From a virus (taxonomy: Duplodnaviria; Caudoviricetes), in IMG/VR virus record IMGVR_UViG_3300033514_000463, positions 1 through 34,070 of that record: DNA of 34,070 nucleotides. The stretch is one strand, 5' to 3'. Under the pieces are notes generated by a model. It worked only from the letters and a program-made list of their open reading frames with translations. It did no database searches and was not told where the DNA came from. Position 1 is the stretch's first letter, and every line of letters begins with the position of its first letter. Both the position numbers and the translations under genes were made by a program. This document shows, piece after piece, positions 3,979-32,093 of this stretch.

Positions 3979-4000
3979 GCTCTCGCTTTAAGCTGTTGAT
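3979..4000 (+). promoter_or_regulatory. Element-specific upstream motif (GCTCTCGCTT-N8-TGAT)
   Basis: Variant copy of the 12-copy motif, 56 nt before ATG 4035. Confidence 0.5.
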
Positions 4001-4034
4001 TTTATTCAATTAACCACTTCAACAGGACTTTTCA

Positions 4035-4679
4035 ATGTACAAATCTGACGACAAAATTGGACAACTGAAACTTTCGATCGCACTTAATCTTGTTCCTAAT
4101 CTGCCACCAATTCCATGCAAGGATTATCGACTAATTGTCGTGGACCCTCCGTGGTCTTATTCCTTGAGAGAAACTGATGCCACTCACCGGGGAAGATGCC
4201 CTTATCCAAGCATGAGTGATGAACAGATTCTGAATTTGCCAATTGGTGCGATCGCACATCAAAACTCATATCTTTTGCTTTGGGTCACCAATAATCATTT
4301 ACCACTTGGGTTTCGGTGTCTGGAACGTTGGGGATTTACATACAAATCCATCTTTACATGGGTAAAAACAACCAAGGCTAGCACAGAGGAAAAACCGATC
4401 GCCAACATGGGGATTGGTCACTATGGGCGGAATTGTACCGAACATTTTCTCATAGCTACCAGGGGAAATCCAGGAAGTTTTACAAGTCACGGCCTGACGG
4501 ATATTCGTAACATAATCTTTGCCCCTCGATCGAAACACTCCGAAAAACCACCGGAATTTTGGACGATCGCTGATCGACTTGCCGAGCATTTAGATGGTCC
4601 GAGAATTGAGCTATTTGCTCGCTCCTCTGGTTTGTTCAAACGTGAAGGTTGGGACAGTTGGGGTGCTGAAACTGACTAA
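4035..4679 (+). CDS. MT-A70 family N6-adenine methyltransferase
   Basis: DPPW catalytic motif, LLLWVTN, WGF.YK..FTWVK, HSEKP, IELFAR, GWDSWG. Confidence 0.9.
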   Translation: MYKSDDKIGQLKLSIALNLVPNLPPIPCKDYRLIVVDPPWSYSLRETDATHRGRCPYPSMSDEQILNLPIGAIAHQNSYLLLWVTNNHLPLGFRCLERWGFTYKSIFTWVKTTKASTEEKPIANMGIGHYGRNCTEHFLIATRGNPGSFTSHGLTDIRNIIFAPRSKHSEKPPEFWTIADRLAEHLDGPRIELFARSSGLFKREGWDSWGAETD

Positions 4680-4721
4680 CAATCCCATGCAAGATAGTGC
4701 GAATAGCTTTATTTATGTAGA

Positions 4722-4743
4722 GCTTTCGCTTTTAGGTATTGAT
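4722..4743 (+). promoter_or_regulatory. Element-specific upstream motif (GCTTTCGCTT-N8-TGAT)
   Basis: 38 nt before ATG 4760. Confidence 0.65.
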
Positions 4744-4759
4744 GTCTTGAGGATTTTTT

Positions 4760-4924
4760 ATGGTTATCAAATTTGATGATTACGAAGATTTAATCGTGTT
4801 TGTAATCCAGTTTGTGGAAGTCTGCCCAGATTCTACTTATACAGAGCTTGATAATGCTCTGTATATTAATGAGGAACCCTGTGTGGAGAAAACAGATGAA
4901 GAAGATTCCGACATCCCCTACTAG
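4760..4924 (+). CDS. Small acidic hypothetical protein (54 aa, MVIKFDDYEDL...)
   Basis: Not in the ORF track; GAGG RBS and conserved upstream motif at canonical distance. Confidence 0.6.
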   Translation: MVIKFDDYEDLIVFVIQFVEVCPDSTYTELDNALYINEEPCVEKTDEEDSDIPY

Positions 4925-4930
4925 CAATAA

Positions 4931-4960
4931 ATAGCGTATTTGCTGGGTCGCTCCCAGCTT
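4931..4960. promoter_or_regulatory. Conserved hairpin/pseudoknot leader element, copy 1
   Basis: ATAGCGTATTT-GCTGGG-TCGCT-CCCAGC just before ATG 4968. Confidence 0.65.
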
Positions 4961-4967
4961 TTTTATC

Positions 4968-5318
4968 ATGTTCTACGTTTTGATTAATTCCAAAGGCATC
5001 GACATTCGAGAATCCAAAAAAATGCTGACTCTCAAAGAAATGCAAAACTTAGTAGGCATTGAAGGTGAGCCAGCTTACATCGAAGTTGCTTCTTATCAAA
5101 GTTTTTCTGATAAGTCGATCACGATGATTTGTGATGAAGAGTTCTTGATGAAAGAATGTCAACCAACTTGCAAGACGATCGAAGGTACTGTAATTCACGG
5201 TCAAGTTTTGATTGTAGGAACTAATGCCAAAAAAGATGATTTTGATTTGTTAACTGGGGAGCAGGTTTTAATTGTGAGACGTGAAGTCCTATTAGCACGT
5301 CTTCTAAGGCCTCGCTAA
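4968..5318 (+). CDS. Hypothetical protein (DUF3846-like)
   Basis: LKEMQNLVG...IE...ICDEE...IHG.VLIVG...L pattern. Confidence 0.6.
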   Translation: MFYVLINSKGIDIRESKKMLTLKEMQNLVGIEGEPAYIEVASYQSFSDKSITMICDEEFLMKECQPTCKTIEGTVIHGQVLIVGTNAKKDDFDLLTGEQVLIVRREVLLARLLRPR

Positions 5319-5323
5319 CAAAT

Positions 5324-5352
5324 TAGTGAATTGCCGGGTCACTCCCGGCTTT
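5324..5352. promoter_or_regulatory. Conserved hairpin/pseudoknot leader element, copy 2
   Basis: TAGTGAATT-GCCGGG-TCACT-CCCGGC before ATG 5358. Confidence 0.65.
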
Positions 5353-5357
5353 CTTTC

Positions 5358-5591
5358 ATGCAACACTACAAAACTGTTTATTTGCACCGTATTATTGCTG
5401 AACAGGCGATCGGACGCAAACTACAACCAGGCGAAGTTGTTCACCATCTGGATGAAGATAAAACCAATAATTCACCCGAAAACTTGGTCATTTGTTCATC
5501 TTTCGTTCATCGACAATATCATCGTAAATCTCTGCGACAGAAACTTGAATCCGTTAACCCTCTGATTCAAGTCGATGATTTGTGGTTCTGA
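5358..5591 (+). CDS. Small HNH endonuclease-domain protein
   Basis: HRIIAEQ.IGRKL..GEVVHHLDEDKTNNSPENL...HRQYH. Confidence 0.8.
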   Translation: MQHYKTVYLHRIIAEQAIGRKLQPGEVVHHLDEDKTNNSPENLVICSSFVHRQYHRKSLRQKLESVNPLIQVDDLWF

Positions 5592-5614
5592 TTCATCTAA
5601 ATACTCAGATTTTG

Positions 5615-5642
5615 ATAGCGTATTACCGGGTCGCTCCCGGTT
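5615..5642. promoter_or_regulatory. Conserved hairpin/pseudoknot leader element, copy 3
   Basis: ATAGCGTATT-ACCGGG-TCGCT-CCCGGT before ATG 5649. Confidence 0.65.
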
Positions 5643-5648
5643 AAAACA

Positions 5649-5882: not shown

Positions 5883-5884
5883 GT

Positions 5885-5906
5885 GCTTTCGCTTTTGGGA
5901 TTTGAA
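5885..5906 (+). promoter_or_regulatory. Element-specific upstream motif (GCTTTCGCTT-N8-TGAA)
   Basis: 46 nt before ATG 5931. Confidence 0.65.
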
Positions 5907-6149: not shown

Positions 6150-6161
6150 CTAGGTAAATAA

Positions 6162-6190
6162 ATAGTGAATTGCCGGGTCACTCCCGGCTT
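6162..6190. promoter_or_regulatory. Conserved hairpin/pseudoknot leader element, copy 4
   Basis: ATAGTGAATT-GCCGGG-TCACT-CCCGGC before ATG 6196. Confidence 0.65.
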
Positions 6191-7363: not shown

Positions 7364-9325
<1,962 letters not shown>

Positions 9326-10820: not shown

Positions 10821-11567
10821 CTAAGATTTTAGCAATCCCGTAAGTTCAGGAATGTTTCCAGCTAATAGCCAACCAGTTTCAGGCGAATAAATTGGTGTGG
10901 TTACCGTGACCCCCCAACTAGCTAAATCATTTGTTTCAACTTCAACAAATGATTCATCAGGTGCTTTGATATTCCAGACTTTTTTAACTGTCACAACTTT
11001 CGACAAAAGTCCGCTCGGAATTGGTGGTATGGATGAAACACCTAAGCCTTGATTGATTGTGAGTCCTTCGGAAGCACTCAGGGTAGGGGAAGGAACAGGA
11101 ACTGGTTCTGAAGACGAAGGAGACGAAGGAGCACTCAGGGTAGACGAAGGAGAGGAAGGAATATATCCTGGGAGAAGTTCTAGAGGAATTGCTTGAGAAA
11201 ATTCTTGGGAGATATCAGAAGAAATTTCTGGATAAACTTCTGGAAATTCTTCAGAAAATTCTGTTTGAGCTTCTGATTGAGCTTGTGAATCGGGTAGAAC
11301 TGAAACACCAAAGCTTTTGCTAGGGGTAAATTTGATTTTGCGAGATGCCTTAAAAGTAGACAGTTCACCAGTCCGAGGATTTCGACCTTCACGTTCAGGT
11401 CGATCGACGGCTTTGAAAATACCGAGCCCTTCGAGTTTTACGGTATCGGACTCTCTGAGAGACATGGAAAGGAACGAAATCACAGAAGTCGTAACGGCTG
11501 CGATCGTACTTTCAGCGAAACCAGTCGAAGTTTTAACGTAAGCACTTAGATCTGTTATGGATGTCAT
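10821..11567 (-). CDS. HU-family DNA-binding protein with long C-terminal extension
   Basis: VKLEGLGIFK..RPEREGRNPRTGE...KFTPSK signature, then a Ser/Pro/Glu linker and a GYF_2-like tail. Confidence 0.85.
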   Translation of the reverse strand: MTSITDLSAYVKTSTGFAESTIAAVTTSVISFLSMSLRESDTVKLEGLGIFKAVDRPEREGRNPRTGELSTFKASRKIKFTPSKSFGVSVLPDSQAQSEAQTEFSEEFPEVYPEISSDISQEFSQAIPLELLPGYIPSSPSSTLSAPSSPSSSEPVPVPSPTLSASEGLTINQGLGVSSIPPIPSGLLSKVVTVKKVWNIKAPDESFVEVETNDLASWGVTVTTPIYSPETGWLLAGNIPELTGLLKS

Positions 11568-17972: not shown

Positions 17973-19634
17973 TTAAAATGATTTCCATACACCAAGAGGG
18001 AAACTAACTGCGTGTTTTTCACTAAATTCTTCTAGCAATTTTTTAGCTTCATCAACATTCAATATGACCGGAATTTCACCAGATAAATCAAAGCCTCCTT
18101 TAATTTCTAATTTGTCTTTTTCCATCTCCATTCCGACACCAGAAATGGAGTCATATTCTACAGTAGCTAAAGTTAATAAATCTTCCTTCATTGCCTCAAA
18201 TTCTATTTTAGCATCATCAGCATTTTGGATACTTGCATAAACAAACCCCGGATATTTATCATGTTCAGCCAAGAGATAAAATTGTGAGAATGTCATCGTA
18301 CTCTCGTTTTTCATTGCCAAAATGATGATGATTGAAACGAGTAAAATAGGGACAGCCATACCCATCAAAAACATCCAACAAGTAGCATTCATATTGGTTG
18401 TGCCGAATACCGTCATCAACAAATCTGAACCAGCTTTTAAAGCACTCGCAGCAAAGAATCTTAAAGCATTAGCCCCAGCACTACCAGAAACTTTAAGGAC
18501 GATCGAAGTAATACAGCCAGTTAGTGCTGGTAGTAGAACTGAAGGTAATCCCAATAAATTCATGCAACTTGTTAGAAACCAATTTGCAATGGTCGAAATT
18601 ACCCCAGCAACTATTCCTACAGTCGCTACAGCACCGCCCACAAGGACGATCGGCGCTACAACTGGAATAATTACTAAAGCACTCGCATTCACTTTGATGC
18701 TTCTGATTGATAAAATTCGATCGTTATAAATTGAGTTTATTTCATATGGATTCTGCCCAATTACTAAATTGCTAAAATAATTCTGATGATTTGGTGCTTT
18801 AATCCCACTTCCACCTCCACCTCCTGGCGGAGTTTTGGGTTCAGTTTTGGGTTCAGTTTTGGGTTCAGTTTTGGGTTCAGATTTGGATATTTTAGGAGAG
18901 GGTTCAGATTTGGATTTTTTAGGAGAGGGTCTGGCTGGATCACCCATAGCAACAAGAGCTTTAGCAACAGCGTTATATTTATCTCGTGTTTGTTTTCGTT
19001 CTTTGAGTTTTAGACGTTTATCTTGCAATTCTTTATACAATTTATCTCTCAATTCTCTAGATTTTCTAAGAGCTTCTTCTTTTTGTGCTTTAACAAATGC
19101 CGAAGCCGAGTCGATCGCATAATCAACTTTAATCCCAAGCGTTGATAATAGTGGCAAGTTTAAACTTTCATTAAAAGCATTTATTACTTTAGCATAAATG
19201 CCTTTTTCGTTATCGTTATAACGAAGATTAGATAATATTGTTTCACCAGCACCAGCCAAATTAGAATGAGCTTTGCTATTATAAGCACGATTTATACCGT
19301 GGGCTGTTTCTAAAAAAGCTATGCCACATTGACCTATTAATTTAGGAAACATTTTGACGATTTTCCCGGTTTCAAGCCAACCGAGAATAGTTTTAGTATC
19401 TTTATGATTCAAAAGAGCTTGAACAGGCGCTTGTGCCATTAGCCAATTTTGCGGTGCTTCCATCAATTTTCTAACTTCGTCAGCACCTGTCAATGATTTA
19501 ATATCTGCCCATATTCCTGTGATTGTATCCGATATTTGCTCTGATGGCTCTTTTCCTGAGCCTTGCGAAGGATCAGATTCTGATTCTGGTGTTGGTGTTG
19601 GTGTTGGTGTTGGTGTTGGTGTTGGTGTTGGCAT
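17973..19634 (-). CDS. Membrane protein of unknown function
   Basis: PT and PKTE repeats, a coiled coil and 3-4 long hydrophobic segments; first gene of the polymerase operon. Confidence 0.75.
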   Translation of the reverse strand: MPTPTPTPTPTPTPTPESESDPSQGSGKEPSEQISDTITGIWADIKSLTGADEVRKLMEAPQNWLMAQAPVQALLNHKDTKTILGWLETGKIVKMFPKLIGQCGIAFLETAHGINRAYNSKAHSNLAGAGETILSNLRYNDNEKGIYAKVINAFNESLNLPLLSTLGIKVDYAIDSASAFVKAQKEEALRKSRELRDKLYKELQDKRLKLKERKQTRDKYNAVAKALVAMGDPARPSPKKSKSEPSPKISKSEPKTEPKTEPKTEPKTPPGGGGGSGIKAPNHQNYFSNLVIGQNPYEINSIYNDRILSIRSIKVNASALVIIPVVAPIVLVGGAVATVGIVAGVISTIANWFLTSCMNLLGLPSVLLPALTGCITSIVLKVSGSAGANALRFFAASALKAGSDLLMTVFGTTNMNATCWMFLMGMAVPILLVSIIIILAMKNESTMTFSQFYLLAEHDKYPGFVYASIQNADDAKIEFEAMKEDLLTLATVEYDSISGVGMEMEKDKLEIKGGFDLSGEIPVILNVDEAKKLLEEFSEKHAVSFPLGVWKSF

Positions 19635-19670: not shown

Positions 19671-19679
19671 ATTATAGCA
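19671..19679 (-). promoter_or_regulatory. Consensus extended -10 (TGCTATAAT) for the polymerase operon
   Basis: Reverse complement of ATTATAGCA, ~36 nt upstream of ATG 19634. Confidence 0.55.
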
Positions 19680-22008: not shown

Positions 22009-22037
22009 TCTACACTTCGACGGATTCGAAGTGTAGA
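22009..22037. other. Perfect 12-bp intergenic hairpin
   Basis: TCTACACTTCGA-cggat-TCGAAGTGTAGA. Confidence 0.6.
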
Positions 22038-22053
22038 GGAAAGTGCCAGTAAT

Positions 22054-22674: not shown

Positions 22675-22730
22675 GGTTTTTCCTCATTGAACTTGAATGG
22701 AAGATGGTACCAATACTGAAGCCGAAGCGT

Positions 22731-23123: not shown

Positions 23124-23188
23124 AATGCGTTTTATCCTTCATTTGATACTTCAGAACAAACGTGTTCTAATAGTGAAATATTTAAGAA

Positions 23189-23545
23189 TCAACGTTTCTT
23201 AAAACTAGCCAATTCCGACTTATGCCTTGAGGACATACTAGCCTTAGCAGATTTGTGTTGTGCTGACAGTGAGGCTTTGGCGGATTTGGTTTGTGATTTA
23301 ACGTCGGCGATGTTGCTTGCATACGATCGCGTCATTGCCCCTTTTTCTGAACTCTTTTGAGAAGCAGATTTTTTGCTCCAACCTGAACCAGTAGTCAACC
23401 TATTCAAAGCTTCTTTTCGAGCAAACATAACGGTTTTAAGTTCACCTTTCCACACGTTATCTAGGTTCTTCTTTTGGTCTGCTTGGGCTGAAGCCAGGGC
23501 ACTTTTTTCTGATTTTTGGCGTAATCGAGCTTGAACAATACTCAT
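23189..23545 (-). CDS. Lys/Ala-rich basic protein, paralog 2
   Basis: KSAKASLSAQH KSAKASMSSRH KSELASF; GGAG RBS. Confidence 0.8.
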   Translation of the reverse strand: MSIVQARLRQKSEKSALASAQADQKKNLDNVWKGELKTVMFARKEALNRLTTGSGWSKKSASQKSSEKGAMTRSYASNIADVKSQTKSAKASLSAQHKSAKASMSSRHKSELASFKKR

Positions 23546-23604
23546 ACAAAGTCTCCGTAAGTTTCGTAAATGCGGTAATGGATTTGACTACAGTATAACC
23601 AATT

Positions 23605-23838
23605 TTATTTAAGTGATGCTAGTTCACTTTTGTTACTTTTGATTTGGTTAGCTAAGCCAGTTTTTGCATCGGCTCGTACTTTTTTAAGACTAGCCGTAGC
23701 TGTTTCAATTCGTACTTTCCATAGGTTTTTTACAAACACTATAGCAGCTTTATGATTTGCTATCATCGCTTTTTTAGCTGCTGCTAGTCTAGCTTTTTCC
23801 GCTTTTTTTGTTGAGCGTTGCGAAACATCTGTAGGCAT
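23605..23838 (-). CDS. Lys/Ala-rich basic protein, paralog 1 (77 aa)
   Basis: Start moved to ATG 23838 after AGGAGAG; EKARL...NHK...KSELASLK. Confidence 0.75.
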   Translation of the reverse strand: MPTDVSQRSTKKAEKARLAAAKKAMIANHKAAIVFVKNLWKVRIETATASLKKVRADAKTGLANQIKSNKSELASLK

Positions 23839-24032
23839 TAGTGAGTTCTCTCCTTGATATATTTTTAGTTTAACAGATGTTTCTAAAACCCGCAAGGGAT
23901 ATGCTAAATTAAAATACAATACTCCAGTCACATCCATCCTCTTTGAGGGCTACGCCATCGAATCTATCGCTAACGCAAGGCTCAGGAGAAGGCTCAGGAT
24001 TGCAAAGGATCGTCCTACTATAAAGCAAAAAG

Positions 24033-24653
24033 ATGTTAATTGTCACAGAAGCGCATGATCTCGATCCAGTTTACGGTTCAAATTACAAGCCAGGTTATAT
24101 AGGATTTACGAACAGAGATAGTAGCATAGTCTCGCTCGGGATAGCTTATTTTACTGGATGGAATCTAATGAACGATATCCACGTAACACACGCATTTATT
24201 GTTTTGGATGAAAATACGTGTATTGAGGCAGATACAACAAATAATTCAGTGGAAAAGTCATCATTAAAAAAATACTTTGATGACCCAGAATGTCAGATAT
24301 TCTTTCGGAAACCTATAGATTTTACAGAAAAGATTGGGGATGCGATCGCACTAACTGCTTTAGGAGAAGTGGGGAAACAGTACGATTTTGGAGCAATTCT
24401 TACCCAAGCTTTATCAGGAAGTTTGGCGGGTCGGATACTTGCTCGAATATTTCGAGGCAAGTTCGAGGACAAAATTGCGGAGATTCTTCAGGAATCTGAC
24501 AAATGGGTTTGTAGCGAGTTGGTGGCTTATGCGTTGGATGAGCAACCGATTTACCGGGACAGAGGGATTCTCTCGCGACCCAATTCGGCAATTAGTCCCC
24601 AAGAATTGTTTGAAGATTCTCAGATTTTTACACCGTGGAAAAACCAAAAATAG
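24033..24653 (+). CDS. Permuted papain-like NlpC/P60 enzyme (YiiX/YebB-like)
   Basis: His before Cys: THAFIVL ... GKQYDF ... WVCSELVAYAL ... ISPQEL. Confidence 0.8.
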   Translation: MLIVTEAHDLDPVYGSNYKPGYIGFTNRDSSIVSLGIAYFTGWNLMNDIHVTHAFIVLDENTCIEADTTNNSVEKSSLKKYFDDPECQIFFRKPIDFTEKIGDAIALTALGEVGKQYDFGAILTQALSGSLAGRILARIFRGKFEDKIAEILQESDKWVCSELVAYALDEQPIYRDRGILSRPNSAISPQELFEDSQIFTPWKNQK

Positions 24654-24720
24654 TTTAGGAGTAAAATAATGGGCGGAAAAGCTAGGGTATATTTGACATC
24701 AGACAAGAAGTGGATGGAGT

Positions 24721-25231
24721 AGTTTAAGTTAAGGTTCGATTGAATGCAACGGTTTGATCCACGAGAACTACGCTAACAAATGCAACGGTTCGATCAAATG
24801 CAACGGTTCGATCGAGTACAACAGTTCGATCGAGTACAACGGCTCGATCGAACTGTTGTACAACGGTTTAATCCTCTACGAGGGCTACGCTAACGAAAGT
24901 AAATTTGTCTTACGGGCTACGCTAATGGTGAAGGGAAGATGAAGGGAAGATGAAGGGAGATGATAGATGAAGATAATGAAGAGATTGAATTTAGTGGATT
25001 TAGTAAGATTGTTTCTGTGCGATCGTTTTATGTAGTTAGTTAGTTATTTAGTAAGATTATAGGTAAAACCTGCTAATTTAGTGGCTTTATAGACGGGGGA
25101 AGTTGAGTTAATTTTTACTGGGTTTGTTTGATTTTAGTGTTTGATTTTAGTGAGTATTTGATTTGATTTTGATTTTGATTTTGAGTTTGAGTTTAAGTTT
25201 AAGTTTAAGTTAAGGTTCGATCGCATGCAAC
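24721..25231. repeat. Origin-like non-coding region: 18-bp iteron-like repeats, purine-rich repeats and T-rich tract
   Basis: A(A/G)T(G/A)CAAC(G/A)G(T/C)TCGATC(G/A) x4 in tandem (24779-24850) plus variants at 24743 and 24858; GATGAAGGGAA repeats; ~30-bp imperfect direct repeat at 24721 and 25202. Confidence 0.7.
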
Positions 25232-25383
25232 ACGTTACTGAGGATTACTGAGGATTCATAACGCTTCGACTTCACTCAGTGCAAGACTCAGCGCACCGCT
25301 TCAGAAACACCATAACAATCAGAAACAGTTTTTGTTACTGAGAAACAGAGAAACAAATTAGTGATTTTGGATTTTTGGATATT

Positions 25384-25405
25384 GCTTTCGCTTTTGAGTT
25401 TTGAT
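25384..25405 (+). promoter_or_regulatory. Element-specific upstream motif (GCTTTCGCTT-N8-TGAT)
   Basis: Heads the second + strand gene block. Confidence 0.65.
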
Positions 25406-25434
25406 GTTTAATACAGCAACATAACGGCAAACCA

Positions 25435-25800
25435 GTGCATAAACCACGTTATCCCAAGCATCTTTTCCTAGTAACTCCCAAAGATAATATCTCTGATATG
25501 ACTTCCAATGGAAAACAGGCAAAAGGATGTCAATTACCACAAATCAAATTCACTGATTACCAAGTTAGAGAAATTAAAGTCTTACTTGGTGAGAAAAAAT
25601 CCATTTCACGAGTAGTAAAACTTTTCGATATCGAACCGCCATCGATCCTCTCCGAGGACTGCGTTAACGCACCGTCGTTGATTGAAGCGTCGTTGATTGA
25701 ACCATCAACGAGAGTCAAAATCTGTGCGACAGGTAAACAACTAGAACTATTCGATTTGGATAGTTTCACAAAACCCAAGAAAACCAGGAGAAAAAAATGA
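25435..25800 (+). CDS. Protein with truncated HNH remnant and HTH-like segment
   Basis: PKHLFLVTPKDNISDM..KFTDYQVREIK resembles the C-terminal half of phage HNH endonucleases; the N-terminal H/C residues are missing. Confidence 0.5.
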   Translation: MHKPRYPKHLFLVTPKDNISDMTSNGKQAKGCQLPQIKFTDYQVREIKVLLGEKKSISRVVKLFDIEPPSILSEDCVNAPSLIEASLIEPSTRVKICATGKQLELFDLDSFTKPKKTRRKK

Positions 25801-26162
25801 AAAACATCATGTTTGCGGAGATTGAAGGCAAGGTTATCGAAAGTTCACCTCACGGGAATTATCTCGTTGTGGAACTTAGCGATCGCATAACCATCGTAGG
25901 GACATTCTCGAATATTTGGAATTGGCAAGAAATGCCAGAGATAAGTTCAGGATTTGAGAGTTTTATCACATACATCGGTGTACGATCGCTCAGTGAAAGT
26001 AAAAAAGTCAAGGAAATAGTCACAAGTTCTGGCGGATATTTCCACAAAAACGAACAAGAACCACGTTCATCCAAACGAGTAAAAGGTTTTCCGTTAGAGC
26101 TGAAAGTCCGTGGTCTGAGTGTTGATTTTTGCGTCGCACTGATTGTGAAGAAAGATCTATAA
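25797..26162 (+). CDS. Hypothetical protein
   Basis: ATGA overlap, AGGAG RBS. Confidence 0.75.
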   Translation: MKNIMFAEIEGKVIESSPHGNYLVVELSDRITIVGTFSNIWNWQEMPEISSGFESFITYIGVRSLSESKKVKEIVTSSGGYFHKNEQEPRSSKRVKGFPLELKVRGLSVDFCVALIVKKDL

Positions 26163-26169
26163 AATTAGT

Positions 26170-26209
26170 AAAGAAACCTGCTGTCAAAGTGTGGTAGGTT
26201 TCTTTTTTT
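26170..26209 (+). terminator. Intrinsic terminator
   Basis: AAAGAAACCTGC / GTAGGTTTCTTT plus T run. Confidence 0.75.
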
Positions 26210-26218
26210 AAGAGGTTG

Positions 26219-26240
26219 GCTATCGCCTTGAGTTTATGAC
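26219..26240 (+). promoter_or_regulatory. Element-specific upstream motif (GCTATCGCCT-N8-TGAC)
   Basis: 39 nt before ATG 26258. Confidence 0.6.
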
Positions 26241-26257
26241 ATTTATTGGTGGCAATC

Positions 26258-26572
26258 ATGGCTATTATCATCCCATCTAAGTCGGAAAAACGCGCATCTG
26301 AATTGCGTGATGGATTGCGTTTGTTGGCTTGGGAAGCTTACAAAATTGCGAATAATCTCAAAGGTCAAGATGCCTTTAACGGTTATTCGCAATTTAACGA
26401 TGAATGGAAAGAACACGAAGTTCAAAAATTTGATCTTAAGGGAGTTGAAAAACTTATAGTCTCCCTTGGTTACACGATTGATGAATTGATGCAAATTCGC
26501 GAGGAAACTTATCAACGAAAAGCGGAGTTCAACAAGAACGATAAGAAAGATAAGGACGATGTGCCTTACTAA
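26258..26572 (+). CDS. Hypothetical protein
   Basis: Single-gene unit between motif and terminator. Confidence 0.75.
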   Translation: MAIIIPSKSEKRASELRDGLRLLAWEAYKIANNLKGQDAFNGYSQFNDEWKEHEVQKFDLKGVEKLIVSLGYTIDELMQIREETYQRKAEFNKNDKKDKDDVPY

Positions 26573-26581
26573 TAAGTAGGG

Positions 26582-26622
26582 AAAAAGATTCAACCATCCA
26601 AAATGGTTGAGTCTTTTTTTTT
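26582..26622 (+). terminator. Intrinsic terminator
   Basis: AAAAAGATTCAACCAT / ATGGTTGAGTCTTTTT plus T run. Confidence 0.8.
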
Positions 26623-26719
26623 GGCTGATTCCACACTTTACCTAAACCAAAAATGCTTCACCTAAAACAATACCTAAATACATCACAGCAAAAGCGATCC
26701 AGAATTTCTGGCTGGGTAG

Positions 26720-26741
26720 GCTATCGCCTTGAGTTAATGAA
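26720..26741 (+). promoter_or_regulatory. Element-specific upstream motif (GCTATCGCCT-N8-TGAA)
   Basis: 39 nt before ATG 26759. Confidence 0.6.
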
Positions 26742-26758
26742 AATTATCGGAGAAAATC

Positions 26759-27163
26759 ATGGCTATTACAGTTGAAAAGTTCGATCGCAGTATTTATGAC
26801 ACTGAAAAACGGTCTTTCCAAATTGGAAGAACGGTTTACAATGTTAGCGAAGGTACTTATAGCGATTGGAACGATGACGAACTCGATTGCTCACCCTTGT
26901 GGGGCAATTGGCGCACAATCGAAGAACTGCGACAAGAACTTTGGAGTGAAATTCAAAGTTTCATGCCGACTTACTTGGAATCTGGCATGGATGCCGTCAG
27001 AAAACGTCGCAGATGTTCTGGCAGATTTCAATGTTTAGTTAATGCCGCCAATAATTATCTAGATTACGGCAAATTAAAGCTAATCTACATCAGCAATCGC
27101 GATCATGCTGAAATGATAGCAAGATGCATTCAGTATGTTGCTGACCAAATTCGACCATTTTAA
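26759..27163 (+). CDS. Hypothetical protein
   Basis: GGAG RBS; single-gene unit. Confidence 0.75.
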   Translation: MAITVEKFDRSIYDTEKRSFQIGRTVYNVSEGTYSDWNDDELDCSPLWGNWRTIEELRQELWSEIQSFMPTYLESGMDAVRKRRRCSGRFQCLVNAANNYLDYGKLKLIYISNRDHAEMIARCIQYVADQIRPF

Positions 27164-27165
27164 AT

Positions 27166-27204
27166 AAAAATCCCAACTTCTACTAAGAAGTTGGGATTTT
27201 TTTT
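27166..27204 (+). terminator. Intrinsic terminator
   Basis: AAAAATCCCAACTTCT / AGAAGTTGGGATTTTT plus T run. Confidence 0.8.
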
Positions 27205-27209
27205 CTGTT

Positions 27210-27231
27210 GCTTTCGCTTCAAGATTTTGAT
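27210..27231 (+). promoter_or_regulatory. Element-specific upstream motif (GCTTTCGCTT-N8-TGAT)
   Basis: 38 nt before ATG 27248. Confidence 0.65.
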
Positions 27232-27247
27232 TTTTATTTGGTGTTAT

Positions 27248-27829
27248 ATGTTCCGAAACCAGTTTTATGACGATTATATGGGTGGATTGAATCGCGAAAC
27301 TCAATACACTTTCCCTGAATTTGAGAAGGAATATCACACAGCAATGGTAACGGGTCATCGTTGGTTCGTTTATCGAACTCCGATCGATAAACTAATCACA
27401 ATGGCTGTGAATCAAGGAGTTACCCATTTTCTTTGCGGTATGGCGATCGGTGCTGATCAAACTTTTGCTGAAGCATTGATCGATCGCAATCTTAAATGGA
27501 CGGCGGTAATTCCTTGCGCTGACCAAGATAAATTGTGGAAACCGCATCAGCGATCGCATTACAGGAAACTCCTAGACCAGGCAACTAAACAAGTGATTTT
27601 GTATCCAGGTTATTGTCCTGGTGTTATGCAAGGTCGCAATCTCTGGATGATTAAACGTGCCGATCTCTGTCTTGCAATTTTCAGTGGTGATCCATGCGGT
27701 GTCGGTGGCGGAACTGCGACTACAGTCAAAATGGCACGCGATCGCAACCTTTTGATCTATCAGTACATTCCTGCCGAATCCAAGTTCACAATCATTGAAC
27801 CAGCTTATCAACAAATGAGCCTGTTTTAG
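27248..27829 (+). CDS. SLOG superfamily protein (YspA/DUF1273-like)
   Basis: MVTGHR, FLCGMAIGADQ, VIPC.DQ...W, MQGRNLWMI, GGTATTV..A. Confidence 0.85.
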   Translation: MFRNQFYDDYMGGLNRETQYTFPEFEKEYHTAMVTGHRWFVYRTPIDKLITMAVNQGVTHFLCGMAIGADQTFAEALIDRNLKWTAVIPCADQDKLWKPHQRSHYRKLLDQATKQVILYPGYCPGVMQGRNLWMIKRADLCLAIFSGDPCGVGGGTATTVKMARDRNLLIYQYIPAESKFTIIEPAYQQMSLF

Positions 27830-27909
27830 CCGTGAAACTACCATCCCCCTTTAAAAGGGGGATTCAGTACACCGCAAATCAAACCCAAAGAAAAACCCAA
27901 AGAAAAACC

Positions 27910-28131
27910 ATGAAAAAGATAGTTGATCCACATCTTGTTCTTCATGTCAGAATCAAAGCTCTTACCATGCAACTGATCGCCCGTGGAGAAATAATTTCAT
28001 GCGATCGCCAAGCTGATGATTCCTACATAATCGATCGCCCAGGATATTTGCCAACAACCTTCACCGCTGTCAGTGCCGGGACTTTGCTTTATCTCCTTAA
28101 TTCTGCGATTTCCTCAGAAACAGAAACTTAA
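27910..28131 (+). CDS. Hypothetical protein
   Basis: ATG 27910 preferred over the GTG start at 27832. Confidence 0.6.
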   Translation: MKKIVDPHLVLHVRIKALTMQLIARGEIISCDRQADDSYIIDRPGYLPTTFTAVSAGTLLYLLNSAISSETET

Positions 28132-28147
28132 TCCTGTGAAGGACAAT

Positions 28148-28178
28148 AACGTTACTAGAAACCAAATCTAGTAACGTT
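28148..28178 (+). terminator. Hairpin, probable terminator
   Basis: AACGTTACTAGA / TCTAGTAACGTT. Confidence 0.6.
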
Positions 28179-28209
28179 TCTGATTTCTGATTTTCAAGAA
28201 AAAACCAAA

Positions 28210-28231
28210 GCTTTCGCTTTGGAGTGTGGAT
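28210..28231 (+). promoter_or_regulatory. Element-specific upstream motif (GCTTTCGCTT-N8-GGAT)
   Basis: 37 nt before ATG 28247. Confidence 0.6.
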
Positions 28232-28246
28232 TTTTAGGTGTTACTT

Positions 28247-28636
28247 ATGGACATTCTAACACGAGAATTCTGGAATACACAGAAATTAAATGTTTGCTGG
28301 ACTGATTCTGACAAAAGCTTGTTGGAATCGCTCAGCAAAATGATTGATTTAGACGCAACGATCAAACGTCTACAAGATTTTAATTGTCAAAATTGTTTAG
28401 TCTTCACAGATGAGCAAGTAAAATTTGCTTTTGTGAAATGGTTTGAATCAACGATTGAATCGATCGAACAACAACCCGAATGGTACATCAAAAATGAACC
28501 AAAAGTCTTCAAGCAAAATCTTCCTTTCGATAAATTGGAAGAGCTTATGTATTCCGATGATTTGCGCGAATATGATGCTGAACATGTTAGCGAAGCCCTT
28601 GAAGAGGTAGCCATAGATTCAATCTACGACTGGTAA
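28247..28636 (+). CDS. Hypothetical acidic protein
   Basis: AGGTG RBS before ATG 28247. Confidence 0.7.
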   Translation: MDILTREFWNTQKLNVCWTDSDKSLLESLSKMIDLDATIKRLQDFNCQNCLVFTDEQVKFAFVKWFESTIESIEQQPEWYIKNEPKVFKQNLPFDKLEELMYSDDLREYDAEHVSEALEEVAIDSIYDW

Positions 28637-28640
28637 CAGG

Positions 28641-28676
28641 AAAATGGCTGTAGGAGAATTTTCTACAGCCGTTTTT
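28641..28676 (+). terminator. Intrinsic terminator
   Basis: GGCTGTAG / CTACAGCC stem plus T run. Confidence 0.7.
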
Positions 28677-28713
28677 CAAAATCTCTCTTTCTCTTTCTCT
28701 TAACTATTTTACC

Positions 28714-29163
28714 ATGAATTATCTCAAACGACTTGCAGAACTTCGCAAAAAAATTGATTGTTTAAAACTTGAAGCTTCAGCGATCGAACCTGACGCAATT
28801 CTTGAAGCTTTCGAGATTCTTGAATCAGAAACATCAGTAAATGGTAAAAGTGTAGTTTTTTCCGATACTAATGCTAAAATTGTGTTAGTCTTTCGTAGCC
28901 ATTACGATGATGAAATCCCAACAATTAAGCGGTTGGATGAAGATATCGATCGAGAATACGAGAAACTTTGTCAATCAAACGCATTTGTGATCGAGAACAA
29001 CAGAGCTTACATCCAAGAATTACAAGAAATGATTGACATCGCCAAAACAAAACAAGAAACGTTTTTGGTTTCTCCGTACTTAGAACAACTGAGAAAACAA
29101 CGGGCGATCGCATTGCAAAAGACAGAACATAAGGTGCCGAGTTTGGCTATTTATGTTAAATAG
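28714..29163 (+). CDS. Coiled-coil hypothetical protein
   Basis: 149-aa ORF with heptad-like segments. Confidence 0.7.
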   Translation: MNYLKRLAELRKKIDCLKLEASAIEPDAILEAFEILESETSVNGKSVVFSDTNAKIVLVFRSHYDDEIPTIKRLDEDIDREYEKLCQSNAFVIENNRAYIQELQEMIDIAKTKQETFLVSPYLEQLRKQRAIALQKTEHKVPSLAIYVK

Positions 29164-29164
29164 T

Positions 29165-29186
29165 GCTTTCGCTTTGGGTTTTTGAT
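29165..29186 (+). promoter_or_regulatory. Element-specific upstream motif (GCTTTCGCTT-N8-TGAT)
   Basis: 92 nt before ATG 29257 (longer leader). Confidence 0.6.
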
Positions 29187-29256
29187 TTTTTACGCCAATT
29201 TACGGTAAGGCTGAATAGAACCGTACTCAAACAAAAACCAAATTCAGGAGAAACTT

Positions 29257-29994
29257 ATGAACCCTATCATTATCGACAACTTTGCTTTCAGAATTCCTAA
29301 TATTCCGGCACGTTATCGCGCCAATTGCGGGAAAGATTTCGGAATCTTCGTCACCGGAGAAAGCAAAGGCATGAATTGCTCTAAAGCCGAAAAAGCTGGC
29401 TTAACTCGCGGGTCATTTGTAGAAATGGCAGTTTGCGCGCTCGGGAATCGGACACTGACTTTCAAACCTCATTACGAAAATGAATCCTTCACAGAAATTT
29501 GGGGTATCCCAGTTGCTGGCGAAATGAAAACCGCATTCCACGAAAATTGCTCAGAACTTTCAACTTTTCTGATTCACCGTCAATCGCAAGACAAAATCAA
29601 AAGTTTGATTGAAACATTCGGTTGCCAAGCATTCAATTCTTGGGTCACAGAAGGTATGCCCGGAGATGTTAATGAATATGCGATCACCAAAGCATCGGAA
29701 GCATATTTCGCCAACATCTTTCGCTTTGAATTTATCCAAACTGAAGGCAATTACGGACTTTACTTTTACATCAGTACGACTGTCCGCCCACCTTCTACTC
29801 CTTTTGAAAACGCAGCACTGAAAGCTGTTCATCAAATTTACGAATCCGATCGATTAGGAGCTGGTATCTGCATCGACTACCGATTAATCGAAAACGAACA
29901 GCTTTGCTTGGCTATGGCTTCATCACCCGATGCTGCGATCGAACAACAAGCTCTTCCTTCTATTCCTCCAAAACAAATCAAAGGCAAAAGCTAA
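29257..29994 (+). CDS. Hypothetical protein
   Basis: 245 aa, AGGAG RBS. Confidence 0.8.
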   Translation: MNPIIIDNFAFRIPNIPARYRANCGKDFGIFVTGESKGMNCSKAEKAGLTRGSFVEMAVCALGNRTLTFKPHYENESFTEIWGIPVAGEMKTAFHENCSELSTFLIHRQSQDKIKSLIETFGCQAFNSWVTEGMPGDVNEYAITKASEAYFANIFRFEFIQTEGNYGLYFYISTTVRPPSTPFENAALKAVHQIYESDRLGAGICIDYRLIENEQLCLAMASSPDAAIEQQALPSIPPKQIKGKS

Positions 29995-30100
29995 TCCCTC
30001 GACCTGAGTAAGTCGTTAAAACTGCTCAGTGTTATCATGTTTGGCTAATTAATTACTGAGAATAATTAATTAGCCTTTCTAAAAAAATAGGGTAATAAAA

Positions 30101-31000
30101 ATGGGAAACACTAAGATTGAATGGACTGATATCACAGTAAATCCAATTCATTTAATCCGTGAAGACGGTAGCAATGGTGGTCACTGGTGTCATAAAGTTT
30201 CACCTGGATGCGCCAATTGTTATGCAGAAGCGCAAAATCAAAGCAATTATTTCAAGTTTGCTTCGCATCTTCCTTACACAGGCGAAGTTCCTCAGAATCT
30301 CATCTTTGATGAAAAAGTGATGAAGAAATTGCTCAATATGCGATCGCCCAAAAAAATCTTTCTCTGTTCCATGACAGATTTATTTGGTGAATGGGTGCCA
30401 GACGAATGGATTGATAAAATTTTTGCTTATATGGCGATGGCATCCCAGCATACTTTCCAAATCCTTACCAAACGCGCAGAACGGATGCAAAACTATTTCG
30501 ATGGGCTTAGTGCTCGTCGTATCAACGAAGCAGCTTATAAAATTGACAAAACAAGGATAATTCCATTTATACCTTTGCCAAATGTTTGGCTCGGAGTCAG
30601 TGTGGAAAATCAGAAAGCTGCTGATGATCGCATTCCTTTACTTCTTGCAACACCAGCAAAAATTATATTTCTGAGTTGTGAACCATTGTTGGAAGCGATC
30701 GATCTTCGTAAGCATTTCAGAACATCAAATAGTGGCGATATATTGACTTGGCTTGATTATCTACACTTTATTATCATTGGTGGTGAATCCGGTAGCAAAG
30801 CACGACCATGTGATGTGAATTGGATTCGATCGATCGTTCAACAATGCAAACCAACCAACGTCGCTGTATTCGTCAAACAATTAGGTTCCCGTTCGAGCCT
30901 CTCCTCTGGTTTATCAGGTTTGAAACATCACAAAGGTGGTGATATTAACGAATTTCCCGAAGAACTCAAAATCAGACAATTACCCTCCGAAAAATTATGA
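30101..31000 (+). CDS. Phage Gp37/Gp68-family (DUF5131) protein
   Basis: TKIEWTD..NP, C.KVSPGCANCYA, FLCSMTDLF, HTFQILTKR, NVWLGVSVENQ, FLSCEPLL, IIIGGESG, VFVKQLG. Confidence 0.92.
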   Translation: MGNTKIEWTDITVNPIHLIREDGSNGGHWCHKVSPGCANCYAEAQNQSNYFKFASHLPYTGEVPQNLIFDEKVMKKLLNMRSPKKIFLCSMTDLFGEWVPDEWIDKIFAYMAMASQHTFQILTKRAERMQNYFDGLSARRINEAAYKIDKTRIIPFIPLPNVWLGVSVENQKAADDRIPLLLATPAKIIFLSCEPLLEAIDLRKHFRTSNSGDILTWLDYLHFIIIGGESGSKARPCDVNWIRSIVQQCKPTNVAVFVKQLGSRSSLSSGLSGLKHHKGGDINEFPEELKIRQLPSEKL

Positions 31001-31200
31001 AACCTACACTTGACGAATTGAAAAACTTGCCTACGATTCATTCTGGACAATTCAGTGATTTAAAATCTGAAACAGATGATACACGAATCTGGTTATCTCG
31101 ATCGACCACTGAAGATGGAGAACCTTACGACAACAAAGTTACGATCGAACACTTTGATGATGGAAATCTAACAACTACCGAGGAATATCAAGCCAGTTAA
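30997..31200 (+). CDS. Hypothetical acidic protein
   Basis: ATGA overlap with the DUF5131 stop. Confidence 0.65.
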   Translation: MKPTLDELKNLPTIHSGQFSDLKSETDDTRIWLSRSTTEDGEPYDNKVTIEHFDDGNLTTTEEYQAS

Positions 31201-31207
31201 TTCTAAC

Positions 31208-31249
31208 AAAAGGTATCAAGGATTTTAAATCTTTGATACCTTTTTTTTT
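31208..31249 (+). terminator. Repeated terminator, copy 1
   Basis: AAAAGGTATCAAGGATTT..ATCTTTGATACCTTTTTTTTT. Confidence 0.8.
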
Positions 31250-31253
31250 AGGC

Positions 31254-31275
31254 GCTTTCGCTTTGAGATGATGAT
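31254..31275 (+). promoter_or_regulatory. Element-specific upstream motif (GCTTTCGCTT-N8-TGAT)
   Basis: 39 nt before ATG 31293. Confidence 0.65.
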
Positions 31276-31292
31276 GTTTAGGACTAAAAATT

Positions 31293-31679
31293 ATGTCTAA
31301 TATTTCGTCGAATTCCAAAGATGGCTTATGCGCTGTTTTGACTAATCCCACAGAACTGGCATATCGAAAAGGAAATCTTAAGCGCCATTATCCAATTACG
31401 GATAAAAATGGCAAAGTCTGGAAAGACGCTGAAGAAAGTTATAAACACTTCAAGACGGGCAACCTTGAGGAAGACATGAGGATTATGACAAAGATAATAG
31501 TTGCCAAATTACGACAATATCCAGAAATTGTTGTAGCGATCGAAAAGCGAGGTGGAATAGAATGGCTAAAAAGCTGTTCACATATCGTAGGAAGTTTTCC
31601 CTCACGATGGGAAGGCAAAGGCATGAATAGCAATTTTATAAAGTGTTTAGTTAACGCTTATAGAATTGCTACTAATTAG
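31293..31679 (+). CDS. NADAR (YbiA)-like protein
   Basis: YPI..NGKVW.DAEESY..FK ... MTKIIVAKLRQYP ... RWEGKG..SN resembles the NADAR pattern. Confidence 0.5.
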   Translation: MSNISSNSKDGLCAVLTNPTELAYRKGNLKRHYPITDKNGKVWKDAEESYKHFKTGNLEEDMRIMTKIIVAKLRQYPEIVVAIEKRGGIEWLKSCSHIVGSFPSRWEGKGMNSNFIKCLVNAYRIATN

Positions 31680-31684
31680 AATTT

Positions 31685-31725
31685 AAAGGCATTAAGGATT
31701 TAAAACCCTTGATGCCTTTTTTTTT
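31685..31725 (+). terminator. Repeated terminator, copy 2
   Basis: AAAGGCATTAAGGATTTAAAACCCTTGATGCC plus T9. Confidence 0.8.
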
Positions 31726-31754
31726 CTTTGTCTTTGCTAACGCAAAGAATAGGC

Positions 31755-31776
31755 GCTTTCGCTTGAAAGTAATGAT
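31755..31776 (+). promoter_or_regulatory. Element-specific upstream motif (GCTTTCGCTT-N8-TGAT)
   Basis: 42 nt before ATG 31797. Confidence 0.65.
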
Positions 31777-31796
31777 CAATTTTGAGGACTACGGCT

Positions 31797-32012
31797 ATGA
31801 CTCCGATTCTATCAGTTGAATACAAAGGTTTTGAAGTTCGAGTTTATGGTTCTGATTCTTGCTATGAATCAGAAGTCTTAGACACCTCGAACAACGACAA
31901 ATTTGTTTTTCAAAATCAAGGTAGTTCAGTAGCTCTTAATTTAAGAGCTTGTTGCCAAGATATTGATTGGGTTATCTCCCAAAAACAATGTTTGTGGTTT
32001 GATAAAGACTAA
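31797..32012 (+). CDS. Hypothetical protein
   Basis: GAGG RBS; single-gene unit. Confidence 0.65.
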   Translation: MTPILSVEYKGFEVRVYGSDSCYESEVLDTSNNDKFVFQNQGSSVALNLRACCQDIDWVISQKQCLWFDKD

Positions 32013-32019
32013 ATAATTT

Positions 32020-32061
32020 AAAGGCATCAAGGATTCAAAACCCTTGATGCCTTTTTTTTTT
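32020..32061 (+). terminator. Repeated terminator, copy 3
   Basis: AAAGGCATCAAGGATTCAAAACCCTTGATGCC plus T10. Confidence 0.8.
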
Positions 32062-32071
32062 AAAAGAAAGA

Positions 32072-32093
32072 GCTTTCGCCTGAAAGAAATGAT
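32072..32093 (+). promoter_or_regulatory. Element-specific upstream motif (GCTTTCGCCT-N8-TGAT)
   Basis: 38 nt before ATG 32110. Confidence 0.65.

Follow-up and report, generated by a model that had tools for sequence, protein, structure and literature searches.

Twelve copies of a short motif in the window, as we call the whole 34,070-nt stretch of DNA that was analysed, carry on their template strand a known DNA mini-hairpin sequence that is probably the promoter for the RdRP-type polymerase encoded by this cyanobacterial mobile element; the polymerase would itself be made by the host sigma70 enzyme and would transcribe short genes. This reading is built on sequence comparison and structure prediction. 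The initial annotation had taken the motif for a double-stranded sequence confined to a single element, while the evidence points instead to a family-wide template-strand mini-hairpin that keeps a constant distance to a TG(A/G) box.

The annotated positions proved to be the exact set of matches to GCTHTCGCYT-N8-KGA, all on the + strand, with 0 in 100 dinucleotide shuffles (Table 1). As had been claimed, 12/12 copies are intergenic and nine begin 37–46 nt 5' of an ATG; the other three lie 51 nt (a GTG, of uncertain start), 56 nt and 92 nt from the start codon. A leave-one-out PWM scored the 12 sites at 22–31 bits and the best non-site at ≤13.3 bits. The looser copy that had been proposed at 3487 reached only 8.8 bits and was not counted. 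It was rejected as a full site because the inner base pair is disrupted and because the sequence forms part of a more extended inverted repeat from ~3472, of which it makes up one arm. Several copies had been placed just after a terminator and, in a scan of 23500–34070, terminator-like hairpins do end shortly 5' of four of the nine right-arm copies (27210, 28210, 31254 and 32072). The spacer had been called invariant in length and variable in sequence; its 8-nt length is indeed fixed, but positions 13 and 14 are purine in 12/12 copies and position 18 is A/T in 12/12. Conservation of the 'YT' 3' of CGC is lost across relatives, and the conserved unit is therefore GCT-N(1,2)-CGC-N10-TG(A/G). On the template strand all 12 copies read GCG(N)NAGC, in which two G-C pairs close a G(N)NA loop. 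The core hairpin was closed in 9/12 nearest-neighbour folds of 42-nt template contexts, using a model without sheared-pair treatment, and most copies have a 2–4 bp stem and a 4-nt loop, unlike the 5–7 bp stem and 3-nt loop centred at -11 in phage N4 promoters.

Table 1. Positions of the motif copies, the polymerase and associated features in the window.
Feature	Position	Strand	Remarks
Motif 1	3979..3999	+	Template core GCGAGAGC; 56 nt 5' of MT-A70 methyltransferase gene 4035-4679
Motif 2	4722..4742	+	Template core GCGAAAGC; ATG 4760 38 nt on; putative RNA start at or just after G4741
Motif 3	5885..5905	+	GCGAAAGC; ATG 5931 46 nt on
Motif 4	25384..25404	+	GCGAAAGC; opens right array; start codon uncertain (GTG 25435)
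Motif 5	26219..26239	+	GCGATAGC, 3-bp stem; ATG 26258 39 nt on
Motif 6	26720..26740	+	GCGATAGC, 4-bp stem; ATG 26759 39 nt on
Motif 7	27210..27230	+	GCGAAAGC; terminator 27166-27201 before; YspA-SLOG gene 38 nt on
Motif 8	28210..28230	+	GCGAAAGC within longer stem 28205-28222; terminator 28148-28178 before
Motif 9	29165..29185	+	GCGAAAGC; ATG 29257 92 nt on
Motif 10	31254..31274	+	GCGAAAGC; terminator 31208-31244 before
Motif 11	31755..31775	+	GCGAAAGC; ATG 31797 42 nt on
Motif 12	32072..32092	+	GCGAAAGC; terminator 32020-32054 before; ATG 32110 38 nt on
HU-like protein	10821..11567	-	Downstream of polymerase
Polymerase, 1093 aa	12097..15378	-	Predicted single-chain two-barrel, RdRP/QDE-1 type; DFDGD at residues 503-507
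AlkB-like 2OG-Fe(II) + DUF4326 + SLOG protein, 851 aa	15382..17937	-	Ends 4 nt before polymerase gene
553-aa protein with hydrophobic segments	17973..19634	-	Upstream of polymerase in 26/27 motif-bearing stretches
Extended -10 box TGCTATAAT	19671..19679	-	Precedes 553-aa, 851-aa and polymerase genes

The core is found again near related polymerases, with a loop of three or four nucleotides, and in most cases it precedes TG(A/G) by 10 nt and an ATG by ~38 nt. The template cores at 126 sites were GCGATAGC (31), GCGAAAGC (29) and GCGAAGC (25), with other GNNA/GNA loops making up the remainder, although the search pattern preset the flanking G and A, so that the information lies in the variation being confined to the middle and the length of the loop. 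A G...A pair closes the loop in 167/185 GC..GC cores at that position. Across 61 stretches a spacer of 10 gave 313 matches, compared with 25–65 for spacers of 7–9 and 11–13. The core lies on the template strand at 330 sites vs 19 on the coding strand, and the TG-to-ATG distance is sharp, with a mode of 20–21 nt. Orthologous genes also showed compensatory stems: ACTATCGT in G395 vs GCTATCGC in G255 (72% identical), and ACTTCGT in G392 vs GCTTCGC in G347 and G221 (77–83%), and GC/GC, AC/GT and GT/AC stems are all found in one gene family. The first flank pair is Watson-Crick at 81/255 distinct sites vs 49.9 in within-element shuffles (0 of 10,000), and at 23/24 in three phages vs 17.6 shuffled (7 of 10,000), counts in which sites within one element are related to each other. 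One comparison gave 13 compensated double changes, of which 10 came from the single element G107, which was seeded by hand and has a split polymerase gene. In the cyanobacterial elements the first flank is most often an unpaired T..T (51/117), leaving 2 bp plus the sheared pair, and each element prefers its own loop sequence. The motif site has likely been selected to fold as single-stranded DNA, since its loop varies in sequence and switches between three and four nucleotides, and its stem and flanks change in compensating pairs. GNRA is the loop rule applied to RNA hairpins; GATA, GCTA and GGTA loops and the triloops do not fit it, and the mRNA-side strand carries the core at 19 sites vs 330, and a hairpin acting at the RNA level was rejected.

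The same comparisons bear on whether the polymerase instead reads a double-stranded box, with the match to a hairpin consensus a side effect of a near-palindrome close to HIP1 (GCGATCGC). GCTATCGC is one base off HIP1, a sequence with 26 occurrences in the window, the element-specific loop preference implies some base reading, and in G009 and G016 the outer pair is not strictly kept, being broken at several real-looking sites (A..C at 2, T..C at 4, of which 2 look real, and C..T at 1). However, a duplex box would not be expected to change by 1 nt within its 8 bp, nor to show paired stem changes at orthologous genes, flank covariation and a 330:19 strand bias, and we consider this reading decidedly unlikely.

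The template cores match the mini-hairpin consensus GCGNNAGC/GCGNAGC and its stable variants, which the available text of PMC13037366 describes as extraordinarily stable DNA hairpins; in its melting table stems containing A/T are weak and GAGAAATC stands without a melting point. The early promoters of the N4 virion RNA polymerase, in the available portions of PMC4496689 and PMC13037366, share the template-strand hairpin, the C:G closing and sheared G:A pairs (GCGGAGC/GCGAAGC) and a ruler distance to the start. The N4 enzyme is T7-like, however, whereas the element's polymerase is predicted to be two-barrel, and N4 has three promoters, located at the end of its genome, with a triloop and 5–7 bp stems, which the same portions state are needed for extrusion. 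Here tetraloops prevail, stems are often of 2 bp, and there are 12–25 copies with a downstream TG(A/G) box, unlike N4.

The polymerase matches Pfam family PF05183 above cut-off (E 3.9e-7), with no match in a PDB sequence search. A first model from 10 sequences was poor (core pLDDT 53) and was replaced by an AF2 model with pLDDT 88 and pTM 0.82, for which Foldseek returned RDR2 (1.7e-13) and QDE-1 (1.7e-12) aligned over 800–950 columns. In the catalytic DxDGD loop of 120 sequences D505 and G506 are invariant and D503 and D507 are conserved in at least 90%. The Pfam, AF2 and Foldseek results predict an RdRP-type two-barrel fold in one chain. The eukaryotic RNAi polymerases QDE-1 and RDR2 are the best structural matches (E 1.7e-13 to 1e-10) and share PF05183 and the DFDGD motif, but identity is 12–15%, the whole-chain TM-score is only ~0.4, and the available portions of the literature examined give them no promoter-directed role. 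The polymerase clade also has its own C-terminal beta domain.

YonO, a DNA-dependent RNA polymerase of the Bacillus subtilis prophage SPbeta, resembles the predicted enzyme in being a single two-barrel chain encoded on a mobile element, has the same gene order of polymerase then HU-like gene (yonO then yonN), and gave a weak profile match to the polymerase family (E 3e-7, one-sequence search). It differs in transcribing one late operon, its promoter sequence was left open in its characterisation, and GCT-N(1,2)-CGC-N10-TG(A/G) was not found in the SPbeta yonN-yonK interval, where YonO starts. The gp64/gp96 enzymes of Thermus phage P23-45 and gp66 of crAss-like phi14:2 are also two-barrel single-chain early-gene polymerases (structural matches, E 2e-8 to 2e-4); in the accessible descriptions the former have conserved promoter motifs given as AT-rich and GC-rich sequences, not hairpins, and phi14:2 early transcripts have no common motif. 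DNA-dependent RNA synthesis has been demonstrated for YonO and gp66 and may be shared by the element's clade. The accessible part of bioRxiv 2020.03.07.982082 reports that gp66 and QDE-1 prefer single-stranded DNA.

When 401 cyanobacterial genomes were examined, as the initial annotation had advised, motif clusters were confined to polymerase-bearing genomes (13/13), on the polymerase contig in 11/13, and the 319 genomes that gave no polymerase hit had none. This co-occurrence shows linkage, not recognition; it favours the earlier idea of a promoter for the element's own polymerase, though the evidence points away from the duplex, one-element form of that idea. Of 45 families tested, the polymerase is the only one common to all three element types with the motif. 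G409 is a complete tailed phage (terminase, major head, integrase) with 15 same-strand copies, and G396 is a conjugative element with 15 copies in an array oriented towards a MobP-like relaxase, where a nic site search (G396, L187) found none. Relatives of the window element exist as plasmids and chromosomal islands and differ in array gene content, and the Planktothrix agardhii plasmid of L184 has 6 sites; no relaxase was seen in the window-type element, and neither the 50 proteins of the incomplete window nor 74/87 ORFs of the bounded relative G221 included a terminase, portal or HK97 capsid by Pfam. The G409-type pattern gave 54 matches in viral contigs, 12 in G409 and 42 singles, with no other clusters, and a search of 50,697 GenBank phages gave no match. 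Twelve polymerase-bearing 20–40 kb stretches (G214, G089, G307, G321, G287, G118, G344, G279, G129, G166, L018 and L019) hold only 0–2 sites. In 12 array-less stretches, k-mer scans of upstream regions gave no substitute motif. The remnant G186 keeps 2 sites, with no polymerase found. Single matches in G088, G180, G094 and G250 sit among host genes and were treated as chance.

Arrays span separate polymerase clades in a quick tree that carried long-branch warnings, and the same core accompanies polymerases only ~26–30% identical, which would be explained by a conserved host reader. In that case host RNA polymerase would recognise the motif as a promoter element together with a further factor, which might be a single-strand-binding protein or alternative sigma of the host or else a protein of the element (for instance the 553-aa product), and the element's polymerase would have some other task. 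Almost all window-type elements have the 553-aa and the 121-aa gene (26/27 and 25/27); the product of the former, to which the Atlas assigned no family, is a possible partner of the polymerase. G409 has a sigma factor gene, and its hairpins also occur on the same strand as the polymerase gene. We nevertheless think a host reader unlikely, as clusters are absent from the 319 polymerase-less genomes and, for the G409-type pattern, from other viral contigs, the right array shows no enrichment of sigma70-like sites (31 vs 27.3 ± 5.6), and the 553-aa family was not detected in phages G409 and G411 or in G396. None of the listed sigma70-like sites coincides with a right-arm motif copy, and in 10/12 copies the hexamer after TG does not have the A that is conserved at the second position. 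The element-encoded sigma or activator offered earlier as an alternative was not evident among the 50 window proteins scanned.

The extended -10 boxes annotated at 6713 (+), 9800 (+) and 19671-19679 (minus strand) are present, and TGCTATAAT at the last of these is likely a host sigma70 promoter. Since the polymerase gene has no hairpin in the window, we suggest that the host sigma70 polymerase transcribes the polymerase operon from this box. At the short genes, the comparisons here and near related polymerases place the core on the template strand, with a constant interval to TG(A/G) and ~38 nt to the start codon, and its varying loops and compensating stem and flank pairs suggest a site that folds as single-stranded DNA. 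The polymerase would capture the hairpin once local melting of the A/T-rich spacer, replication or single-strand transfer has exposed the template strand, and a 2-bp stem probably needs protein help. The TG(A/G) box lies 10 nt past the hairpin; RNA synthesis would begin on its G or immediately after it, and the resulting short, terminator-bounded transcripts would express small genes of the establishment type (methyltransferases, SLOG, HNH) outside the control of the host.

Structured single-stranded DNA before small anti-defence-type genes is also a feature of Frpo/ssi in plasmid leading regions, and the G396 array points to the relaxase as leading-region genes do. Frpo, however, mimics a duplex -35/-10 for the host polymerase, whereas here a 7–8 nt hairpin without -35/-10 is linked to an element-encoded polymerase. 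In the available text Frpo serves both transcription and priming, and GCGAAAGC-type hairpins mark the G4 and RSF1010 priming sites (PMC13037366); the accessible part of PMC3417536 proposes a primase role for bacterial RdRP-like enzymes and notes an RNase H association, and RNase H genes adjoin the polymerase in G221 and G396. The hairpins could thus be ssi-like priming signals and the polymerase a primase on single-stranded element DNA, the position before genes being secondary or a dual use. We regard this as improbable, as the sharp TG-to-ATG distance, the one site per short gene and the upstream terminators suit gene expression instead, and G221 already encodes a VapE-type primase-helicase. 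A strain contig that skips 26746-27208, near two motifs, together with the variable array gene content, would also fit an integron att-like recombination or cassette boundary that swaps short genes; there is no attC-like structure, any repeated promoter yields such breakpoints, and recombination needs no fixed spacing to TG(A/G) and ATG, making this very unlikely.

A literature search found no published promoter for an RdRP-type polymerase of this kind, although supplements may hold logos (YonO Supplementary Fig. 2, P23-45 Extended Data Fig. 2), and the work that characterised YonO did not settle how polymerases of its type choose their start sites; for the cyanobacterial members a primase function has been proposed. 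With a 21-nt candidate promoter, natural compensatory variants and a confidently modelled single-chain enzyme now in hand, the question can be answered in vitro with oligonucleotides. If the template-strand hairpin is a promoter for these polymerases, hairpin promoters would have two separate origins, one with the T7-like enzyme of N4 and one with two-barrel enzymes, and cyanobacteria may gain an orthogonal expression system of 21 nt. A broader and more doubtful proposal, which we put forward tentatively, is that one family of RNAi-polymerase relatives uses a portable 7–8 nt hairpin promoter in cyanobacterial tailed phages, plasmid-like islands and conjugative elements, and in the conjugative ones transcribes establishment genes directly off the incoming single strand without host polymerase, as a private, host-independent counterpart of Frpo. 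Were this true, these elements would offer a living model of start choice by bacterial kin of QDE-1 and RDR2.

In the window, GCTHTCGCYT-N8-KGA matched exactly the 12 positions listed in the initial annotation, all on the plus strand, with no match in 100 shuffles. Leave-one-out scores of these copies were 22–31 bits and no other window position exceeded 13.3 bits, while a looser copy previously placed at 3487 reached only 8.8 bits. All 12 lie between genes and nine start 37–46 nt upstream of an ATG, as first described, and terminator-like hairpins stand ahead of four of the nine right-arm copies (those from 25384 on). Sigma70-like sites were not enriched in the right arm (31 vs 27.3 ± 5.6), and the window, a record of its own beyond whose right end the element runs on, contains 26 HIP1 sites. 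We regard a cassette site as a very improbable reading of the motif.

Features of the window and of related DNA
Feature	Location	Strand	Remarks
Motif copies	3979, 4722, 5885, 25384, 26219, 26720, 27210, 28210, 29165, 31254, 31755, 32072	+	
Motif strain variant (run X8 contig end)	26716		GGCGTTCGCC; G-C pair instead of sheared G-A, hairpin kept
Polymerase ORF	12097-15378	-	DFDGD; PF05183 match above cut-off
TGCTATAAT of polymerase operon	19671-19679	-	
Five tandem Lys/Ala-rich basic proteins	21624-23937	-	Upstream of polymerase operon; three in one PHROG family; may condense DNA
Ycf46-like AAA ATPase, DUF2997 and DUF1257 genes	70-3458		No motif in window; trio common to 8-12 related elements
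Second repeat, ATAGYGWATT then G/C-rich hairpin (loop TCRCT)	4930-4960, 5322-5351, 5615-5640, 6161-6190		Ends 5-10 nt upstream of ATG, no Shine-Dalgarno; stems covary among copies; hairpin core 1-4 times in each of 8 related stretches; may serve in termination, processing or translation
Short tandem and dispersed repeats rich in CGATCG, TTTGAT	1-100 (left end), 24733-25212 (in 730-nt gap before right array)		May be an origin or control region
Collagen-like fibre protein, thermonuclease, endolysin-like gene (phrog_33083, 1e-15), small membrane protein	7364-9325, 32593-34070		Present in an element without recognised capsid
Conjugative region of G396	G396:C2 173423-221000		One side: relaxase, VirB4-like, coupling genes; other side: ParM-like gene, polymerase, hairpin-led array (TerD, clamp-loader subunits, SLOG)
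601-aa in-frame polymerase version, Microcoleus chromosomes	L007 10001-11803 (= G007); also L008, L025, P0012		Lacks residues about 214-706, including catalytic loop; remainder 90% identical; 1 motif site only in surrounding 100 kb; possibly domesticated or dominant-negative

GCGNNAGC is the reverse complement of GCTNNCGC and, together with GCGNAGC, forms the consensus of an extraordinarily stable DNA mini-hairpin, described in the accessible part of PMC13037366 as two G-C pairs plus a sheared G-A pair, melting at 70–76 °C. In DNA fetched from the surroundings of polymerase relatives, the template cores (reverse complements of GCT..CGC) of the 126 sites of the first set were GCGATAGC (31), GCGAAAGC (29), GCGAAGC (25) and eleven other loops, and TG-to-ATG distances peaked at 20–21 nt. 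With any loop-closing bases allowed, G...A closed the template loop in 167 of the 185 GC..GC cores. Across 61 stretches, two of them near-copies of the window, a spacer of 10 gave 313 matches vs 25–65 for each of six neighbouring spacers, with 9 or 11 used by some lineages. Among sites with a downstream ATG, the core lay on the template strand in 330 and on the coding strand in 19. A primase role has been proposed for these RdRP-like enzymes (PMC3417536, in the portion available), and the motif could be a priming signal; we think that unlikely.

Both stem sides have changed between orthologous genes of comparison genomes, as in ACTATCGT (G395) vs GCTATCGC (G255) and ACTTCGT (G392) vs GCTTCGC (G347, G221), one gene family is preceded by GC/GC, AC/GT and GT/AC stems, and in both G176 and G107 the inner pair is changed by GTTTTCAC. 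Outer pairs among 184 included five A..T, no G..T, two A..C and four T..C. Under stricter scanning there were 13 double changes with compensation and two single ones, ten of the 13 coming from G107, which was seeded by hand. For 255 distinct sites in 31 stretches, the first flank pair was Watson-Crick in 81 (49.9 in within-element shuffles; 0/10,000) and the second in 104 (89.8; 56/10,000), and the third and fourth did not exceed chance. In three phages, flank pairs 1–3 covaried at 23, 17 and 13 of 24 (7, 101 and 5 of 10,000 shuffles). Kinship among sites is left in all of these shuffles. Some points speak against pairing: in cyanobacterial elements the first flank is most often T..T (51/117), the outer pair is loosened in G009 and G016, and stems with A/T have low stability in vitro according to the accessible part of PMC13037366. 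The loosened outer pair would suit a duplex box, which, set against the compensated changes, appears quite improbable.

The initial annotation had proposed a check of motif-polymerase co-occurrence, which its promoter proposal withstood. A polymerase-family match (E ≤ 1e-40, with two candidates per genome being scored) was found in 82 of 401 genomes of the cyanobacterial order. Two strict patterns formed motif clusters, defined as at least two matches no more than 30 kb apart on the same contig, in 13 genomes, all among the 82 and 11 with the polymerase on the same contig; none occurred in the 319 genomes without a match. Single matches in four of five followed-up genomes sat among host genes and were taken as chance; the fifth, G186, has two sites in a decayed remnant in which no polymerase was found. 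The complete 75.7-kb phage G409 encodes terminase, major head protein and integrase besides a 772-aa polymerase relative. Its 15 copies all lie on the same strand, and GCTAACGC accounts for 14, usually within a longer stem; its pattern formed no clusters in other IMG/VR contigs, the 54 matches being 12 in G409 and 42 singles. The conjugative element G396 encodes a relaxase as well as VirB4-like and coupling proteins, and its 15 copies share a strand and are directed at the relaxase. Among profiles of the 45 most widespread window-type families, only the polymerase is common to G409, G396 and another phage, G411, and the SLOG and RNase H genes of G396 belong to other subfamilies than the window-type ones. 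A Tolypothrix PCC 7601 plasmid (L187) shares the gene order of G396:C2 and has two sites with spacer 11. Against linkage, twelve polymerase-bearing stretches of 20–40 kb have 0–2 sites, and no motif was found in the SPbeta yonN-yonK interval. The motif might instead be read by the host polymerase with another factor; with clusters confined to polymerase carriers, we consider this improbable.

The polymerase model, built from 82 sequences (pLDDT 88, pTM 0.82), matched maize RDR2 (1.7e-13), QDE-1 (1.7e-12), P74-26 gp62 (1.7e-8) and phi14:2 gp66 (2.6e-5), the best matches having TM-scores of about 0.4. The family comprises 434 representatives at 50% identity. Its catalytic loop differs by clade (DFDGD, DTDGD, DEDGD, DYDGD; DNDGD in YonO), and the hairpin loop sequence is likewise element-specific. 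Residues about 815–1093 form a well-predicted beta-rich C-terminal domain, which, being limited to the 1093-aa clade, would not be a family-wide hairpin reader. The operon, encoding 553-aa and 851-aa proteins and the polymerase, has TGCTATAAT and no motif in the window, and the host polymerase would thus make the element polymerase.

Capsid, portal and terminase were not found among 50 window proteins, nor in 74 of the 87 ORFs of G221, a bounded relative whose genes include those for an HTH repressor and a VapE primase-helicase. A membrane-anchored protein encoded past the right end of the window shows FtsK/HerA-like features, a lead only. Relatives are chromosomal or on 36 plasmids, and Planktothrix plasmid p2 has a window-like layout with six sites. 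The element is best called plasmid-like or integrative, though it could be a virus whose coat genes went unrecognised. Because G006, G221 and G358 bear sites on both strands, a transferred-strand-only model cannot be general.

At the level of titles and listings, with most subscription papers outside coverage, we found no promoter described for this polymerase family. In the parts available, the sequence of the YonO promoter is left open (PMC5467207), phi14:2 early transcripts have no motif (bioRxiv 2020.03.07.982082), P23-45 has sequence motifs (bioRxiv 2022.12.01.518664) and the host polymerase reads Frpo (PMC11541004). The motif would work in the way of the N4 early promoter, as far as the accessible text of PMC4496689 goes, but its stems and loops are of other lengths and the linked enzyme is of another class, placing the motif outside that group. 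From the motif's sequence, position, strand, covariation and polymerase linkage and the predicted fold, we consider it probable that the element's own polymerase reads it as a hairpin promoter on the template strand. The host polymerase would transcribe the 553-aa/851-aa/polymerase operon, and the element polymerase would recognise the motif on a template strand that would somehow become exposed, with RNA starting on the G of TG(A/G) or immediately beyond it.
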